Source: Candidatus Hodarchaeaceae archaeon
Lineage (GTDB): Archaea; Hadarchaeota; Hadarchaeia; Hadarchaeales; Hadarchaeaceae
Assembly (NCBI GenBank): GCA_030016755.1
Contig: JASEJC010000002.1
Coordinates: forward strand, 1-45,182
DNA: 45,182 nt
Direction: 5' to 3'
Positions 3,918-26,391 of this stretch are shown here, one piece after another. Made by a program: the position numbers and the translations under genes. Below the pieces are notes generated by a model. That model saw only the letters and a program-made list of their open reading frames with translations. It made no database searches and was not told the origin of the DNA. Position 1 is the stretch's first letter; the number at the start of each line of letters is the position of its first letter.

Positions 3918-5352
3918 CCAAGAACCTCCTAACAGCTGGAAACATCTCCGCTACCCGCTCTTTCGCTATCTCTTGGTAAAGGCTATGCATAATACTAACG
4001 GCCAGCAGGATGCCAGTCCCACTGCCCAGGGCGCCAAGGGCGTCGGCACCCGCCGAAAGCAACCCGACGGATGCTCCGCCCAACAGAGCCACGGTCATGA
4101 TGTACCTGCTCAGCACCCATTCCATCACCCTTGTATCGCGGCGGAAGCCGGGGATAAGCATGCCTGCTCGGTCCAGCTGCTGCGCTATGTCTCGTGGGCC
4201 CATCCCTGTCATGTTAACCCATAGCCAAGAGAAGCCCATGCTGAGAAGAACCAAAAGCGCAATATATACAACGGCATGGATCGGGTCGGCCGCCACACCA
4301 GATATGCCTGCCGGGGCAGAGGTGTAGTAAGCAATCCAAGGGGCGTGGAGAACTGCGCCGACTATCCTCAAGTTCGCAAACACCACCATTGCAAGAATTA
4401 CCGGGATAACTGATGTGTAGAGGAATTGGATTGGGTAGCGCCCCCTAATCCCCCCAAACCTGCCATAGGCGAGGGGGATTTCGATCCGCATGTTTTCGAC
4501 ATAGACCACGATGAAGAATATCAAAATTGTCGCAAACAATCCCATCATGTTGGGTAGTCCAGGCCTAAAGAAAGCGTCCCCGAAACTTTCTCCGCCCAGC
4601 ATCGCCCCTGCGAAATTTGGGATGACCCCGGTTGCTGGGTTCAGAGCCTGCCAGATCACCGTCATCGCGACGCCCCCAAGTATGAAGAGACTGATCCCGC
4701 TTCCGAATCCATACTTTGAGACCAGCTCATCCAAATAGATCACGATAACTACCCCGAGCGTTAGCTGGAACAGGATGAAAAGGCCAGCCGGGGTTCCCAA
4801 TCCAATGCCAAAGCCATAGTGCCCCGCGAGCACGAGCATAGCTCCCTCGAAGAGCCCCATGAGTAGGGCCCCAAATTTTTGGACTCCAGTAAAGAGGGCG
4901 CGATCATCAGAGTTGGTGAGATCGAGCCCGATGATTTTGCTTCCCACGAGCAATTGCATTATAATGCCAGCAGTGACAATGGGGCCTATCCCCAGCTCCA
5001 TTAAACTTCCAGCGTGGCTAGCCAACACATATCTCAATTGCCCAAAAAACTCCTGGACCCCGGCGTCCCAGACCCCGTTGCCGTTAAGGTCGGTGAAAGT
5101 GTCTATTCCCTCGTCGTATATACCATTCCCGTTTACATCCTCGAACGGCTCGCGAGCAGCTGGGCCGTAGAGCGGAACCTGGGTCAAGATGAAGAAGATG
5201 AGGAGCGCTATCCCGGTCCACATGAACCTTTCCCTGAAGGAGACACGCCGCTTCGGGACCGCAACCTCCGGCATCCTGCGCACGAGAGGCTCCAACGCAT
5301 AGAGACTTGACCGCGGCCTCTCCTCCTTCTCCGCCTTCTCCATCGCCTTCAC
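3910..5352 (-). CDS. secY: preprotein translocase subunit SecY
   Basis: LGIGPIVTAGIIMQLLVGSKII plug/TM2 motif, ten predicted TM segments, and the conserved position after uL15. It carries an unusual insert of about 30 aa (see findings). Confidence 0.95.
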   Translation of the reverse strand: MKAMEKAEKEERPRSSLYALEPLVRRMPEVAVPKRRVSFRERFMWTGIALLIFFILTQVPLYGPAAREPFEDVNGNGIYDEGIDTFTDLNGNGVWDAGVQEFFGQLRYVLASHAGSLMELGIGPIVTAGIIMQLLVGSKIIGLDLTNSDDRALFTGVQKFGALLMGLFEGAMLVLAGHYGFGIGLGTPAGLFILFQLTLGVVIVIYLDELVSKYGFGSGISLFILGGVAMTVIWQALNPATGVIPNFAGAMLGGESFGDAFFRPGLPNMMGLFATILIFFIVVYVENMRIEIPLAYGRFGGIRGRYPIQFLYTSVIPVILAMVVFANLRIVGAVLHAPWIAYYTSAPAGISGVAADPIHAVVYIALLVLLSMGFSWLWVNMTGMGPRDIAQQLDRAGMLIPGFRRDTRVMEWVLSRYIMTVALLGGASVGLLSAGADALGALGSGTGILLAVSIMHSLYQEIAKERVAEMFPAVRRFLGG

Positions 5353-7524: not shown

Positions 7525-7971
7525 TCACCTCAACAATCCTCGCTCCCTGAGGTAGGTCTCGAGATGGGCCCTGCTCCTAAAGGCACCGCCCCTGACCATG
7601 TTGTAAAGCCGGCGGTACTCCCTCGGCCCAATTACACCTTCCTTCTTCAACTCCCGCAGCCTGAAACGCAACGGGCGAACGGTTCGAATCCAGCTGGCTT
7701 TTTTCGGGAGCCTCGCATGCTTCGCGCCTTTTCTGCTACCAACACCGCGCCGCCTACCCTTCTTGCGTTTGACGGCTCGCTCCCTGAACCTCCCACGACT
7801 TGACCCGCGTTCCGGTTTCGCGCGGATGACCCCCTGACTGATTAGGTCCCTGATATCCTGACGGGTGATCGCGACTGAGACGTCGGCGGCTCGAGTTGGG
7901 TCTATCCAAACCCTGTTGACGCCAACCTTGAGTATTTCAGCTGCCAGTCTCTTCTTTAGGTTCAACTTCAT
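7525..7971 (-). CDS. rpl19e: 50S ribosomal protein eL19
   Basis: KKRLAAEILKVGVNRVWIDP. Start taken at the ATG at 7969-7971, with an alternative TTG at 7980. Confidence 0.88.
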   Translation of the reverse strand: MKLNLKKRLAAEILKVGVNRVWIDPTRAADVSVAITRQDIRDLISQGVIRAKPERGSSRGRFRERAVKRKKGRRRGVGSRKGAKHARLPKKASWIRTVRPLRFRLRELKKEGVIGPREYRRLYNMVRGGAFRSRAHLETYLRERGLLR

Positions 7972-17763: not shown

Positions 17764-19248
17764 CTATCCCTTGGCGACACCCATTGGTACCAATCTTGCT
17801 ACCTTTCTGGCGATTCCCGCTTTGTGAGATATTTCGCAGACCTTGTCAACGCTTTTATAGGCCTGCGGACTTTCCTCTGATATCACCGATAGCTTGGCCG
17901 CCCGCACTATAATGCCTCTCGACTCCAGCTCTCTTTTGACAACATCGCCTCGAAAACGATTGAGCGCCGCGGTGCGGCTTAGGTGGCGTCCCGCCCCGTG
18001 GGCTGTCGAGGCAAAGGTCTCCTGCATCGCCTGCTCGGTTCCCACGAGCACGTAGGAGGCGGTGCCCATGTCGCCCGGGATGAGCACGGGCTGGCCAACG
18101 CTACGATAGATTGGCGGGATATCTGGGTTCCCAGGTCCAAACGCCCGTGTGGCCCCCTTCCGGTGTACCACGACTTTCCGGTCCTCGCCATCGATGCGGT
18201 GTGTTTCAAGTTTTGCGATGTTGTGTGCGACATCATATATAATGTGGAGGTTCAAGCTCTCAGCATCGCGTCCGAAAACTTGTTCGAAGCTCTGCCTGAC
18301 CCAGTGTACGATCATCTGCCGGTTCGCCCAAGCGTAATTGGCCGCGCACGCCATCGCTGAAAAGTAGGCCTGCCCCTCCGGTGACGTGAATGGAACGTTC
18401 ACCAACTCTCGATCTGGCAACATGATTTTGTATTGGTGAACAGCTCGCTCCATCGTACGAAGGTAGTCGGAGCAGACTTGGTGGCCCAGCCCTCTGGAAC
18501 CTGTATGAATCATCACGGTGACCTGCCCTTCGTAGTCAATGCCGAATTTGCGCGCGACCTCGGGCTCGTAAATTTTGTCTACAACTTGAACCTCGAGGAA
18601 GTGATTTCCGGACCCTAGGCTGCCAAGCTGTGGGAAGCCACGGTGCTTCGCCTCCGCGCTCACTTTTTTAGCGTCCGCGCCCGCCATGCAGCCCCCCTCC
18701 TCGAGCCTGTCCAAGTCCTCGCGCCAACCGAAGCCGTTCTCGACAGCCCACCGCGCGCCATGCTCGAGCACATCGTCAAGCTGGGCGGGTGTTAGCTTAA
18801 CGTGGCCCGTGCTGCCCAAGCCGGATGGCACGTTCCTGAACAACGCCTCGACTATCTCGCGCAGCTTGGGTTCGACGTCCTTTTTTTCCATATTTGTCTG
18901 CAACAGCCGCACGCCGCAGTTGATGTCGTACCCCACCCCCCCAGGGCTTATGACGCCGGTCTCAGCGTCGGTCGCTGCGACCCCGCCGATCGGGAACCCT
19001 TAGCCCGAACATGCTCAAGCATGTATCGTATAGCCCTGATGCCCGTCGGGGAGTGTTATCGCGTACTTGTAGATGCCCTGGAGGAAAGCCACATTTGCGG
19101 TCTGCTCGAGGGTCAGGTCCCTGCGCATCTCGTTCAGCATCTCAGCGTCAGCATAAACCCTCGCAGGCACGCGCATACCACGCTTATAATCTTGTGGGAT
19201 TTCCCATCGCAGCTCGTCAATTTGCTTTATCTTGCCAGTCCACGGCAT
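17764..19248 (-). CDS. rtcB: RNA-splicing ligase RtcB, interrupted. Proposed join of exon 1 (19248..19030) and exon 2 (18999..17764) gives 484 aa.
   Basis: ORF 19015..19248 ends ...[16 protein letters not shown] then TIHA*. In the same frame, after ACSG*, the sequence continues [33 protein letters not shown] into ORF 17764..18936. That ORF carries [29 protein letters not shown] and GVAKG. Removing 19000..19029 restores the canonical PDGHQGYGFPIGG motif and a typical RtcB length. Confidence 0.85.
19000..19029 (-). other. putative bulge-helix-bulge (relaxed HBh') mini-intron in the rtcB mRNA, 30 nt
   Basis: RNA: ACGAUACAUGCUUGAGCAUGUUCGGGCUAA. Both junctions read GGCU followed by a 3-nt bulge (GGCU-AU|A and GGCU-AA|G). 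The two GGCU copies can pair with each other (2 GC plus 2 GU pairs). The interior forms CGA/UCG plus ACAUGC/GCAUGU stems around a UUGA loop. Length is a multiple of 3 and it contains TGA and TAA in frame. Confidence 0.55.
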
Positions 19249-19309
19249 TTTTCCACCTGAATAAGGGAGGTGTTATACTACTAATTACCTTTTGGTTCAA
19301 AAAGCACAC

Positions 19310-19735
19310 CTAAATATCAACAACCGCTTGCACCGAGCAACGGTCTTTCTCGTGCTTGATTTCCATCATATGATAGGTCATCGCTTTGACTGCAGTTCGT
19401 TCCGGGTGCCTAGCGGGGTCGAACGGTTCTCCCTTAACTTGGGCCTTGAGCTTTAGGCCGCCCTTGGTTTTAGATATCGCCACGTCGAACTTTGACATCA
19501 CCAAGTTCCGAGCGTCGTGAAGATAAAGCAGCCGGTCGAGCCAATCATAGAGCAGCGCCCCCTCGTCCTCGGCCTCCAGCTCGACCTCGACCTCCTCACG
19601 CGGCTCGACCTTGTTTGTATCGACCATCACCTCGAACAACGCGAGCGCGGCGTTCTCGAAGGCCTCAGCTAAGTCACGGCCGTAGGCCTTAAAGCCGATG
19701 TCCGATGGGTGCTCGACCCACTCGAAGCGCTTCAT
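19310..19735 (-). CDS. archease (RtcB activator)
   Basis: MKRFEWVEHPSDIGFKAYGRDLAEAFENAALALFEVMVD...VKAMTYHMMEI...AVVDI. Start trimmed to the ATG at 19733-19735 by comparison with known archease N-termini. Confidence 0.85.
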   Translation of the reverse strand: MKRFEWVEHPSDIGFKAYGRDLAEAFENAALALFEVMVDTNKVEPREEVEVELEAEDEGALLYDWLDRLLYLHDARNLVMSKFDVAISKTKGGLKLKAQVKGEPFDPARHPERTAVKAMTYHMMEIKHEKDRCSVQAVVDI

Positions 19736-19817: not shown

Positions 19818-19905
19818 TGGCGCCGGGGAAGGGATTCGAACCCTTGAGGCCCAAAGGGCCACACGCTCTCAAGGCGTGCGCCTTACCTGGCTTGGCTACC
19901 CCGGC
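19818..19905 (-). tRNA. tRNA-Ser(UGA), 88 nt, CCA encoded
   Basis: Reverse complement is GCCGGGGTAGCCAAGCCAGGTAAGGCGCACGCCTTGAGAGCGTGTGGCCCTTTGGGCCTCAAGGGTTCGAATCCCTTCCCCGGCGCCA. Anticodon loop is CTTGAGA, with a long variable arm and discriminator G. Confidence 0.9.
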
Positions 19906-22848: not shown

Positions 22849-23920
22849 GATAAAGCCAGAACGGGAGCACAGGCAGATAGCCTCTGCGAAGCTTACCGAG
22901 ATGGGCCGGGAAGTGGTGAAGGATATCCAAGAGGTCCGCCCGCCCAAACTGAGGATTCCATCACGAAGCACCTCCAACATCATCTACGACGAGGCAAATC
23001 GGTATTTCGTGCTCGGACCGCGGTATGGGGTACGATCTGCGGCGAGCATAAAACAGGTGAAGAAGTTCGCCCAGTTTTTGTGCACGGCTGACTTTGCGAA
23101 GAAGCTCATCGAAAGTGGGAAATTCGCGACGCTCAGGGAGATGTATTACACCGCCGAGGGTTGGGATGCTGGACCATTTTCCGACCAAGGGGAATCCGAC
23201 ATGATCATAGAGGACCTAGAGGCGACCTTTGGGCTCAAGCGCGAAAACCTAGGCCTGACTCCTGAGGAGGACGGGGCCGCGGTTTTCGGAAAGCTCATGG
23301 TCAACGAGGACGGTGTGGTGATAGATGCAACAAAAGCCGGACGCGCAGGCTACACAATCCCGCCGACCATCGATGACGTAGAATTCCTCAAGTGCAAAGC
23401 AAAACGAGTTATCGCGATAGAAACGATGGGTATGTACCATCGTTTCGTTCAGGAGCAGGCCTGGAAGAAATTTGATGCGCTTATCGTGGGTCTAAAAGGA
23501 CAGGCTGCCAGAGCGACTCGACGCTTTTTGAAGCGAGCGCATGACGAGCTTGGACTCCCTATCTACCTGTTCACAGACGGCGACCCCTTCGGCTTTCACA
23601 TCGCGATGGTGGTTATATCAGGGAGCGCAAAACTCGCATACATCAACCACGAGCTAGCGGTACCAGATGCACAATTTTTGGGCGTCACGGCGAGCGATAT
23701 AGTAGATTACAAACTGCCGACCGACAAACTGCGCGAACTCGATGTCGCGCGCCTCAAGCAGTTGATGAAGGATCCCCGCTACAACACCGAGTTTTGGCAG
23801 TCTGAGATTAAGAAGATGCTCGAGCTGGGGAAGAAGGCGGAGCAGCAGGCTTTTTCTAAATATGGCTTGAGCTACGTGGTCAAGGAGTATCTACCCGCGA
23901 AGTTAGGACTGAAAAGCTAG
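22817..23920 (+). CDS. top6A: DNA topoisomerase VI subunit A (Spo11 family)
   Basis: [10 protein letters not shown] contains the catalytic Tyr region. The Toprim region is [12 protein letters not shown]...[12 protein letters not shown]. It overlaps the top6B 3' end. Confidence 0.9.
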
Positions 23921-26391
23921 CGTTTGTATGCCCTTTTTATCTCCCGCAAAATTCGTTTCGCTGTTTCCTTTGGATTCGCAGAGTTGTAAATCGCGCTTCC
24001 GGCTATGCAGATGTCAGCACCTGCACCTGCGACATCCTTCGCGACGCCCTCCTTGATGCCACCTGCTACCGCGAGCGGGAAGCGCCCCGCGCGAGCCTTG
24101 GCCTCCGAGATGAGCTGCGTCTGCTCGTAGATACCCCGCCCCTTCAGCTGCTCGCTTATCCCGCGGTGCAGGCAGAACACCACCCGGGACTCGTGCCCCT
24201 TGAGGTCGCGGGTCAGGCCCTCAAGCATCTCGAGCGGGTCAGGGCAGTCGATTAAGTCTATGAGCACAGCCCGGTTCCATCGCGCGGCCTCGCTCACCGC
24301 CTCGAGTATCTTCGTCCGCCCACCGAGCGCCAATACCGCCGAGATGTCCGCTCCGGCTCTGAAGGCTATCCGCGCCTCGAGGTTCCCAACGTCCATAGTC
24401 TTCAAGTCTGCGACGAGCAGAGCCTTCGGGGCTACCTTCCGCAGGGCAGGTAAAAGTGAATCGACTCCATGCCGCTTGACCGAAGGTGTGCCCGCCTCGA
24501 TGATTTTAGCTCCACCGGTGTAGACCTTCTTTGCCATTGCCGCAATCGTTTGCACATCAGCGTCCATGTCGAGCGCCACCTGAAGCTGCGGGAACTCGAT
24601 TCGCTCGAGCGGGCTTGCGACTATCTCGACCCGCTTTACCCGCTTGGGCTTTCGAGATGGCGGCGGTGCCGTGGGAATCCCCTTCCTACTCCAACCTCTC
24701 TCCTTGTAATACTCGCGCAGCATGGGGTTTAGGTTTACGCCAAACTGTCGAGGGAGCGAGTCCTGCAAGGAGCTGAACCCCTCACGCACGTTGAACATCC
24801 TTTCCACCGTGTAGATCCTCGACCCGACCTCACGGAGGTGCTGACCCGTCCACTCCAGACCCGTCACCGCCGTCAACAGCCTCCCGATATCGTCGAGCTC
24901 GTAGTCGAGCGTGCCAAATAGGGCAAATCCGTGGAACTTGCATGCGATCAGCGAGTCATAGACTGCAAAGGCGTCCTGCATCCGCCGTACCAGTCCCGCC
25001 TTCCCCGCGCTGGCGCCTGGGTCGACAAATTCAGGATTGCTGAGAATTTCCGGGGCAATAGTGTAAGCTCGCAGGTGGCAGCCCCCGCGGTTCGATGTCG
25101 CGTAGGCAAGCGCAATCCCCTTCGCGCCCCGCGGGTCGTATGCCGGGAGTTCGAGACCCTTCACGTGGGCAGCAAGCGCTTTTCGGCTGGCCTTTCTCGC
25201 AACGGCGGCCAGCCCCTTTGAGAATTCAGACCTGCCACTCGCTATCTCTTGAACGAGCCGCTCCGCGTCCTTGAAATCCTTGACATCTCCGACAGCTCGA
25301 GCAAAGCCCAAGATGTTACCGACTGAGATGGTGTCGAGCCCGAATTCATCGCAGAGCTTAGAGAGCGGCAGGATCTCCCGTTCGTAATCATGGAACCCAG
25401 AGTTTGGCCCAAGCATCGCTATGCTTTCGTACTCGGGCCCTTTTCCCTCCCAATCTCCAACTTTTATCCACCGTCCGCAAGCGGTGGTGCAGGCGAAGCA
25501 TGCTGTCCTCCGGAGGAGGTAGCGCTCCTTGACGGTTTCACCTGAATAAACATCCACGTCCTCGAAGCTGAGCGGGCCACCAGAGAAATTGTCGCGGGGT
25601 AGCATTCCCGCCGCTGTGATGCGGTGCACGAGGAGCGCCGTGCCGAATCTGGCGAGGCTGCCGTCGGTTCCGGTGATGGGGTGAGTATCGATGGTTTGTC
25701 TAATTTTTTCGAGAATTTTCCTATATTCGGCTTCATGCGCGATCTTGATTTCTCCATCGCCGCGGACTACCACAGCCTTGAGCCGCTTAGACCCCATCAC
25801 TGCTCCGAGACCACACCGCCCCGCCACGCCCTCCCTTCCAGTACGAGCACCAGAGATTATGCATGCGATGTGAGCCAGATTTTCCCCGGCAGGACCTATC
25901 GTGGCGGCCCAGGAACCTTCGTGCTTCTCCACGAGCTCGCGTCGGGCATCGGAGGTGCTCATACCCCAGAGTGAACTCGCGTCCTTGATAGATACCCTGC
26001 CCCCGTCCAATAGCAGGTAAACTGGCTTGCTCGATCGCCCCTCGAAGATAATGCCGTCAAACCCGGCCCGCTTTAGGTAGGCGCCGAAGGAACCGCCCAT
26101 CTGGGAGTCCGCCACCGTGCCTGTCAGGGGTGACTTCGAGCACACCGCGGTCCTCCCAGCTCCCGGAAACGCGGTTGCGGTGAGGGGGCCCGTCATAAAG
26201 ATGAGCTTGTTCGCGGGGGTCAGGGGATCGATGCCGGGCTTGAGTTCGTCGTAGATGAGCTTGGCCGCGTAGCCCCGACCGCCTAGAAAGTTGTAAGCGA
26301 TTTTCTCGTTTATTTTTTCAACTGTAAACGAGCCTTTCGAGAGGTTCACGCGCAGGAGCTTGCACGTGTATCCGCCAAGCATGGACCCCAC
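23917..26391 (-). CDS. fusion protein: tungsten/molybdopterin aldehyde:ferredoxin oxidoreductase family (about 600 aa N-terminal) plus 3-hexulose-6-phosphate synthase (about 210 aa C-terminal)
   Basis: The N-terminal part has AOR motifs: GGRGYAAKL, the 4Fe-4S cysteines [10 protein letters not shown] plus DSLIACKF, and [10 protein letters not shown]. The C-terminal part has [34 protein letters not shown] and IAGSAIY, matching HPS of the OMP-decarboxylase suprafamily. It is one uninterrupted 824-aa ORF. Confidence 0.8.

Follow-up and report, generated by a model that had tools for sequence, protein, structure and literature searches.

A candidate bulge-helix-bulge mini-intron in the gene of the RNA ligase RtcB of Hadarchaeota

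Introduction

The rtcB gene of a Candidatus Hodarchaeaceae archaeon raises the question whether the ligase which seals RNA halves in archaeal splicing can itself be encoded by a message that has to be spliced. The gene is found on contig JASEJC010000002.1 (assembly GCA_030016755.1), of which a stretch of 45,182 nucleotides, in the following called the window, was analysed as a whole. Its reading frame is interrupted by an insert of 30 nucleotides containing two in-frame stop codons, and immediately upstream lies the gene of archease, the known activator of RtcB. As judged from its predicted fold and from its occurrence in related genomes and metagenomes, the insert is probably genuine and belongs to a family of pre-mRNA introns of the bulge-helix-bulge (BHB) type in the rtcB genes of Hadarchaeota. 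Most likely, the rtcB message would have to be cut and rejoined before more RtcB can be made.

The Interrupted rtcB Gene

The interrupted rtcB gene as a whole occupies positions 19248 to 17764 on the minus strand of the window. Exon 1 (19248 to 19030, minus strand) comprises 73 codons reading MPWTG...LPDGHQGY, and exon 2 (18999 to 17764, minus strand) comprises 411 codons plus the stop codon, reading GFPIGGV...GVAKG. Between the two, and in the protein between HQGY and GFPIGG, stands the putative BHB-type mini-intron (19029 to 19000, minus strand, 30 nucleotides) with the sequence ACGATACATGCTTGAGCATGTTCGGGCTAA, which is written as ACGAUACAUGCUUGAGCAUGUUCGGGCUAA in the feature list. The insert is read in frame as TIHA*ACSG*, with a TGA at 19017-19015 and a TAA at 19002-19000, so that an unspliced message would yield 73 residues of RtcB followed by TIHA, in total 77 amino acids.

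Joining of the two exons gives a RtcB protein of 484 amino acids. This is also the length of the nearest homologues, the uninterrupted RtcB proteins of metagenome-assembled genomes (MAGs) of Hadarchaeota and Hadesarchaea, which are 80-89% identical. The spliced protein matches the Pfam profile PF01139 in a single stretch over its full length (positions 1-426 of 426, 594.6 bits), and it aligns with the RtcB of Pyrococcus horikoshii (1UC2) over residues 5-481 with an E-value of 5e-216, the exon junction being crossed without a gap. In this alignment the catalytic aspartate, cysteine, and histidine residues are kept. Identical in both proteins are D98 and C101 (D95 and C98 in P. horikoshii), the asparagine and histidine of the GSGNHF motif, and the histidines of IHTGS, VAHN, and TAHGAGR.

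Gene callers do not cope well with this arrangement. In the window and in three related loci (L001-L003) they split or shorten the rtcB gene into pieces of 77 + 390 or 408 amino acids, 98 + 392 amino acids, or a single piece of 398 amino acids, and the miscalled proteins start with non-homologous N-termini such as LAAKN- or MDSARKLVAKN-, which are translated from intron sequence. For this reason the ligase may be counted erroneously as damaged when the genes of MAGs are inventoried.

Predicted Fold of the Insert

For the window, 91 nucleotides around the insert were folded without constraints by minimum free energy (MFE). The resulting structure had -27.7 kcal/mol and a z-score of -1.8, and 11 of 200 shuffled sequences folded equally well or better. 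The fold of the window alone is thus unconvincing, and the support beyond chance comes from the comparative data described below.

An outer helix connects the two exons, the codons for L-P-D-G-H (19038 to 19053, minus strand) pairing with the codons for G-F-P-I-G-G (18981 to 18998, minus strand). It is followed by a central helix of four base pairs, two G-C and two G-U, in which the GGCU of the Gly-Tyr codons (GGC-U, 19032 to 19035, minus strand) pairs with a second GGCU inside the intron (19002 to 19005, minus strand). Both helices appear in the MFE structure, in the folds of homologues, and in the RNAalifold consensus. The remainder of the intron forms an inner hairpin, CGA-U-ACAUGC / UUGA / GCAUGU-UCG (19006 to 19028, minus strand), which shows covariation. 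Next to the central helix lie the 5' bulge A-U|A (19029 to 19031, minus strand, predicted cut 19030/19029) and the 3' bulge A-A|G (18999 to 19001, minus strand, predicted cut 19000/18999). Two bulges of three nucleotides around a helix of four base pairs, as required for a BHB motif, were thus obtained in the MFE structure of the window, in 19 of 19 homologues, and in the RNAalifold consensus. Opposite the 3' bulge stand two unpaired nucleotides (A-R) at 19037-19036, which results in an internal loop of 2x3 nucleotides. With this loop and the G-U pairs the modelled motif is a relaxed form of the BHB; in a group of the introns designated type C the central helix has three pairs only.

In a canonical BHB the two bulges follow their respective strands of the central helix on the 3' side, and cleavage takes place between the second and third nucleotide of the bulge, a rule that derives from the position of tRNA introns at 37/38 and from the anticodon-intron pair. 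When this rule is applied to the insert, the cuts fall at UAU|A and AA|G, precisely 30 nucleotides are taken out, and HQGY-GFPIGG is restored. When the window was scanned naively for BHB motifs the excision of which merges open reading frames, about 1,000 candidates were obtained, an uninformative result.

Comparative Evidence for an Intron

Some close database homologues of this RtcB are called as short genes of 379-398 amino acids, and their contigs show the same interruption. Inserts at the same site were collected in three ways, from the contigs of these short protein calls, from a protein-based genome scan, and from a metagenome scan. The genome scan covered one genome per GTDB species and used six peptides of this RtcB as query; the best 80 of 345 matches were taken, and their loci were examined further with motif scripts. 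The pattern for the metagenome scan accepted any insert of 20-50 nucleotides between the codons of HQGY and GFPIGG, leaving the sequence of the insert and the wobble positions of the Gly and Tyr codons free, and yielded 15 further contigs with an insert. In total the insert was found on 23 contigs, i.e., that of the window and 22 others, in 19 distinct sequences with lengths of 29, 30, or 32 nucleotides. Since the length varies, the relative frames of the exons differ among the alleles, which excludes read-through or recoding.

Each of the 19 distinct sequences was folded without constraints, and all of them adopted the common architecture. The RNAalifold consensus gave the same architecture independently, with six covarying pairs. 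Paired cells made up 93.7% of the alignment, as compared to at most 58% when the partners were slid against each other. Compensatory changes among the 19 sequences were observed in five of eight tested pairs, all of them within the inner hairpin; at its base, for example, a C-G pair is found in 13 and a U-A pair in six sequences. None of 500 shuffles reached the observed covariation score, a conservation of structure that concerns the inner hairpin only.

The exons around the insert also carry marks of the predicted structure. The Gly-Tyr codons are GGC TAT in 19 of 19 intron-bearing alleles as opposed to 5 of 31 intronless ones. A mean of 13.1 of 14 possible pairs of the outer helix is formed in intron-bearing and of 10.1 in intronless alleles (Mann-Whitney p = 5e-9), a difference of which the metagenome search pattern explains at most one pair. 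Among intron-bearing alleles the last 70 codons of exon 1 have a ratio of nonsynonymous to synonymous substitution rates (dN/dS) of about 0.07, from which it follows that this exon does not belong to a decaying pseudogene but is translated and linked to something that functions.

A preliminary description of this DNA had called the insert BHB-like and considered it as a possible intron, and this proposal is borne out as probable by the conserved structure, the covariation, the frame-restoring canonical cuts, and the purifying selection on the exons. The survey of relatives suggested there turned up inserts at the same site on the 22 other contigs mentioned above. Its statements that an unspliced message would yield only the 77-amino-acid fragment, and that archease (19310-19735) and rtcB are adjacent and point in the same direction, agree with the in-frame TGA after TIHA and with a distance of 61 nucleotides between the two genes on the minus strand.

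Distribution and Further Interruptions of rtcB

Of about 35 Hadarchaeota species representatives in the genome scan (best 80 of 345 matches), 4 had the insert at this site. In a rough neighbour-joining tree built from exon 2, alleles with and without the intron were intermingled among close relatives. Two loci carry an intron of another sequence type, AUGUUKACAC...GACAGGCAAA, at the same site, i.e., L089 (positions 360-389 of the oriented strand, 30 nucleotides) and L093 (positions 7667-7698 of the oriented strand, 32 nucleotides). Their RtcB proteins are 58-60% identical to that of the window, and their nearest named relatives, with about 62% identity, are found in the DPANN archaea (Aenigmatarchaeota, Nanoarchaeota). 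The host of these two loci may tentatively be assigned to a DPANN-like lineage by sequence, and its intron suggests either an old origin or lateral spread.

Besides the site described so far, which is called intron 1 in this section, the rtcB genes of relatives contain, in the 28 codons that follow it, two more sites of mini-inserts and an intein. All of these lie within about 30 codons around the most conserved active-site motifs and are grouped around the metal ligands Asp95 and Cys98 (P. horikoshii numbering). Site 2 (GVG-Y|DINCG) is occupied by a putative mini-intron of 25-26 nucleotides in L002 (about 3986-4011) and L003 (about 76-100), in both cases together with intron 1. It is predicted to form a canonical helix of four base pairs, UUGG/CCAA, with the bulges AUU and AAA, and the stems of its hairpin differ by compensatory changes between the two loci. 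Cutting by the BHB rule, GGA U|...|AC GAC, restores the frame exactly. At site 3, within the codons D-I|N-C-G and about 100 nucleotides downstream of intron 1, a putative mini-intron of 31 nucleotides occurs in L015, L036/L091, and L096, again co-present with intron 1. Here the central helix is ACAU/GUGU (AUGU in L096), the hairpin is strong, the z-scores of the folds range from -3.2 to -5.5, and the BHB rule (AUA A|...|AC UGC) likewise restores the frame exactly.

The inteins stand in frame at DIN|C, i.e., at Cys98 of the P. horikoshii protein. In L029, L030, L034, L035, and L040 about 1.38 kb separate the exon matches, in L085 and L090 the start of an intein is seen at DIN|C, and a database homologue (P0109, 820 amino acids) contains the intein with LAGLIDADG domains. 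Some rtcB genes thus combine intron 1 with intron 2, with intron 3, or with an intein, the last combination being found in L029, L085, and L090; a RtcB with both intein and intron 1 would need RNA splicing as well as protein splicing. The patchy presence, the variable length and stop codons, and the clustering of intein and alternative sites at conserved motifs fit selfish or neutral elements, and the family of introns 1 to 3 is best seen as selfish or neutral mini-introns in that part of Hadarchaeota rtcB which encodes the active site. Taken together, these features point to such elements persisting where imprecise loss is lethal.

Neighbouring genes served for comparison. Among 32-39 copies each of archease, the RNA methyltransferase, L3, and L4 in the fetched loci no internal stop codons or split matches were seen, partial matches being due to the ends of loci. 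No intron-containing tRNA gene occurred in 44 related loci, which contain intronless tRNA-Ser genes only. An apparent fourth interruption of rtcB in L036, at residues of about 415-451, turned out to be a masked run of N, and an apparent intron in rpl3 of L002 (called with 288 as compared to 336 amino acids elsewhere) was due to the gene caller picking a later start in an intact gene.

Proposed Splicing Mechanism and Self-Dependence

Splicing of the rtcB message could proceed as follows. In the folded pre-mRNA the codons for LPDGH would pair with those for GFPIGG to form the outer helix, the GGCU of the Gly-Tyr codons would pair with the GGCU close to the intron's 3' end to form the central helix of four base pairs, and the remainder of the intron would fold into the hairpin, leaving A-U|A and A-A|G as two single-stranded sites of three nucleotides. 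The splicing endonuclease EndA would then cut both sites behind their second nucleotide, while the long exon-exon helix would hold the halves of the mRNA together, a job which is done by the tRNA body in tRNA splicing. A ligase for 3'-phosphate and 5'-OH ends, most likely pre-existing RtcB with archease, would finally join the halves at a predicted junction reading ...CAGGGCUAU|GGGUUC in the RNA, so that the RtcB of 484 amino acids could be translated.

If the intron is removed at the RNA level and RtcB is the sole ligase of this kind in the cell, new RtcB can be made only where RtcB already exists. Dependence of RtcB synthesis on existing RtcB hence follows logically, although it is unproven. 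It does not involve a paradox, since daughter cells inherit RtcB protein. Archaeal RtcB synthesis already depends on RtcB by way of intron-containing tRNAs, and the self-reference is therefore one of degree, direct rather than unprecedented. To our knowledge, RtcB is the only archaeal ligase demonstrated to act on EndA products. EndA and RtcB were present in all near-complete archaeal genomes examined in a recent study, which also found Hadarchaeota genes to be highly expressed in total-RNA data from wetlands (PMC12918454). For Hadesarchaea an EndA of the alpha4 type with an additional L3 loop has been described, which is associated with many disrupted tRNA genes (PMC5829648).

Alternative Explanations

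Several observations speak against an intron in the form proposed here. The z-score of the window's own fold is modest against chance, the motif is relaxed in that its 3' bulge lies opposite two unpaired nucleotides, and G-U pairs make up two of the four pairs of the central helix. EndA enzymes of the alpha4 type are classically strict for the canonical BHB. Covariation, moreover, is confined to the hairpin, and the central and outer helices never covary, as is understandable from their being coding or invariant. If the insert were nevertheless not an intron, it might be a lesion or an artefact, either an assembly error or a small palindromic element, flanked by a target duplication of 6 base pairs, which has made rtcB a pseudogene. 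A direct repeat, GGGCTA...GGGCTA, does flank the insert, which contains a palindrome and stop codons. The repeat is explained, however, by the pairing of GGCU with GGCU, and introns of type C lack it (GGGCTAT... as compared to ...CAGGCAAA). As the insert occurs on 23 independent contigs from many samples, with strong purifying selection on exon 1 (see above) and a covarying hairpin, and as no frameshifts or stop codons were seen elsewhere in the intron-bearing alleles, the break in L036 being masked N, a lesion or artefact is very improbable. Handling of the insert during or after translation is hardly conceivable. It might consist in a ribosomal bypass as in gene 60 of phage T4, in recoding, or in an enzyme of two pieces with 77 and about 390 amino acids. 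A bypass would find a hairpin after a potential take-off site and the GGGCUA repeated, but a ribosome landing on the second GGC would meet UAA directly after it, and with gaps of 29, 30, and 32 nucleotides and correspondingly different relative frames of the exons no fixed gap is kept. Against a two-piece enzyme it can be said that exon 2 is not preceded by a conserved start codon or ribosome-binding site and that alleles interrupted twice would yield a piece of about 25 amino acids. The conserved helix of four base pairs with its bulges of three nucleotides is left unexplained by either version.

Granted that the insert is an intron of rtcB, the halves of the message might still be ligated without any self-reference, either by a second, uninterrupted RtcB or by a heal-and-seal pathway, i.e., a kinase, a phosphoesterase, and an ATP-dependent RNA ligase. 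The self-dependence was derived from a window of 45 kb, which represents one contig, so that another RtcB or another ligation route may exist, and the scan with six peptides, limited to the best 80 of 345 matches, reaches close relatives only and is blind to divergent paralogues. Within these bounds no second rtcB was found, tblastn giving one locus in the entire 45-kb contig and none of about 35 Hadarchaeota assemblies occurring twice among the best 80 of 345 matches; with RtcB alone demonstrated, as far as we know, for archaeal EndA products, a separate ligation route appears unlikely. It is quite unlikely, too, that the intron has evolved as a regulator by which RtcB and EndA activity gates the synthesis of RtcB in the sense of positive feedback, bistability, or quality control. 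The preliminary description had favoured such a feedback or quality-control circuit, to which the position of the intron in the 5' part of the gene, where unspliced or cleaved RNA would give an inactive peptide of 77 amino acids only, and the archease gene immediately upstream would be suited. The idea does not fare well in view of the distribution. Among close relatives, alleles with and without the intron are intermingled, about 35 species representatives include only 4 that possess it, its length and stop codons vary, and the same conserved motifs are hit at three sites and by inteins, a pattern characteristic of selfish elements. For an enzyme that is essential, a positive loop would also be without evident benefit. 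A more far-reaching conjecture, and rather a long shot, is that the rtcB introns are not passive at all, RtcB synthesis being directly autocatalytic and the introns moving by reversal of the EndA and RtcB reactions. In that case autocatalytic RtcB could provide a bistable, heritable on/off state of tRNA splicing, for instance in a commitment to dormancy, and the clustering of three sites in the 5' part of rtcB could reflect a reversed EndA/RtcB reaction favouring the mRNA nearest to newly made RtcB.

Comparison with Known Systems

Protein-coding genes with introns of the tRNA type are extremely rare in archaea. A BHB intron in the pre-mRNA of cbf5 was reportedly described by Watanabe in 2002 and by Yoshinari in 2006. 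For Desulfurococcales and Sulfolobales the occurrence of such introns in cbf5, which encodes a pseudouridine synthase, has been documented (Yokobori 2009, PMC2738675). Like the predicted introns of rtcB, those of cbf5 are short, of BHB type, and often relaxed, they reside in the protein-coding gene of an RNA-processing enzyme, they have been gained and lost in a patchy manner, and they cause gene callers to annotate a split or frameshifted gene. Different from cbf5, rtcB encodes the ligase of the same pathway, and the organisms are Hadarchaeota (plus possibly a DPANN-like lineage), for which an EndA of the alpha4 type with an L3 loop has been reported in place of the crenarchaeal heterotetramer. 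Up to two of three alternative sites are occupied per rtcB gene, a long exon-exon helix is predicted, and the rtcB case is known from sequence alone.

Introns of BHB type in archaeal tRNA and rRNA, including non-canonical and multiple ones, share with the rtcB insert the predicted motif, the cut positions, and the enzymes EndA, RtcB, and archease. In rtcB, however, the substrate would be an mRNA without a tRNA body, a codon-built exon-exon helix of up to 14 base pairs appears to act as tether, and the 3' bulge belongs to an internal loop of 2x3 nucleotides. The unconventional splicing of XBP1 in metazoa and HAC1 in yeast also removes a small intron (26 nucleotides in XBP1) from an mRNA by means of a protein endonuclease, and in metazoan XBP1 the exons are kept together by RNA structure and joined by RtcB with archease. 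In these systems IRE1 acts on twin stem-loops, whereas EndA would act on a BHB, the outcome is a stress-regulated switch of frame, and the spliced mRNAs do not encode the ligase. The inteins of archaeal RtcB (P. horikoshii PH1602 and the seven loci with an intein listed above) are selfish elements in the same active-site region (DIN|C), which like the introns have to be removed precisely for a working enzyme; they differ from them in that they splice themselves at the protein level and do not require pre-existing RtcB.

The literature searched (full text, limited library) yielded no account of a BHB intron in rtcB, and the only archaeal pre-mRNA intron confirmed there is that in cbf5 of some Crenarchaeota. 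In this literature reviews until 2025, and likewise a 2025 paper on these endonucleases, cite the cbf5 work only. The rtcB gene would thus be the second host gene for protein-coding BHB introns in archaea, with a new phylum and several sites. New aspects are the host gene, which encodes the ligase of the pathway itself, the phylum, the type of endonuclease, and the three sites. Such genes would offer a natural system for studying the coexistence of mRNA splicing with coupled transcription and translation, the tethering of the exon halves of an mRNA, for which a codon-built helix appears to serve here, the gain and loss of BHB introns, and the physiological effect, if any, of a direct autocatalysis of the ligase.

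Neighbouring Genes

On the minus strand of the window the order of genes is tRNA-Ser(UGA), archease, rtcB, a putative RNA methyltransferase, and the ribosomal-protein operon of rpl3. The tRNA-Ser(UGA) gene is located at 19905 to 19818 (minus strand). The archease gene (19735 to 19310, minus strand), identified from the listing of open reading frames and by Pfam, encodes 141 amino acids from an ATG at 19735 and matches PF01951 over its full length (profile positions 1-136 of 136, E = 5.8e-49). It lies upstream of rtcB on the same strand, the 61 nucleotides mentioned above being counted from its end to the ATG of rtcB.

The synteny of archease and rtcB is also found in L001 and L002, where an extra open reading frame is located between the two genes. 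In L001 (2712-3659) this is a free-standing, homing-endonuclease-like reading frame of 315 amino acids with LAGLIDADG_3 similarity, and in L002 it is an unannotated reading frame of 154 amino acids on the opposite strand. In L029 about 1.1 kb lie between the end of archease and the start of rtcB. At another place of the window (23917-26391, minus strand) a single open reading frame of 824 amino acids contains the AFOR_N and AFOR_C domains of aldehyde:ferredoxin oxidoreductase at residues 11-575 and a domain of the orotidine monophosphate (OMP)-decarboxylase/HUMPS family at residues 601-814, which either represents an uncommon fusion or results from two genes being read as one.

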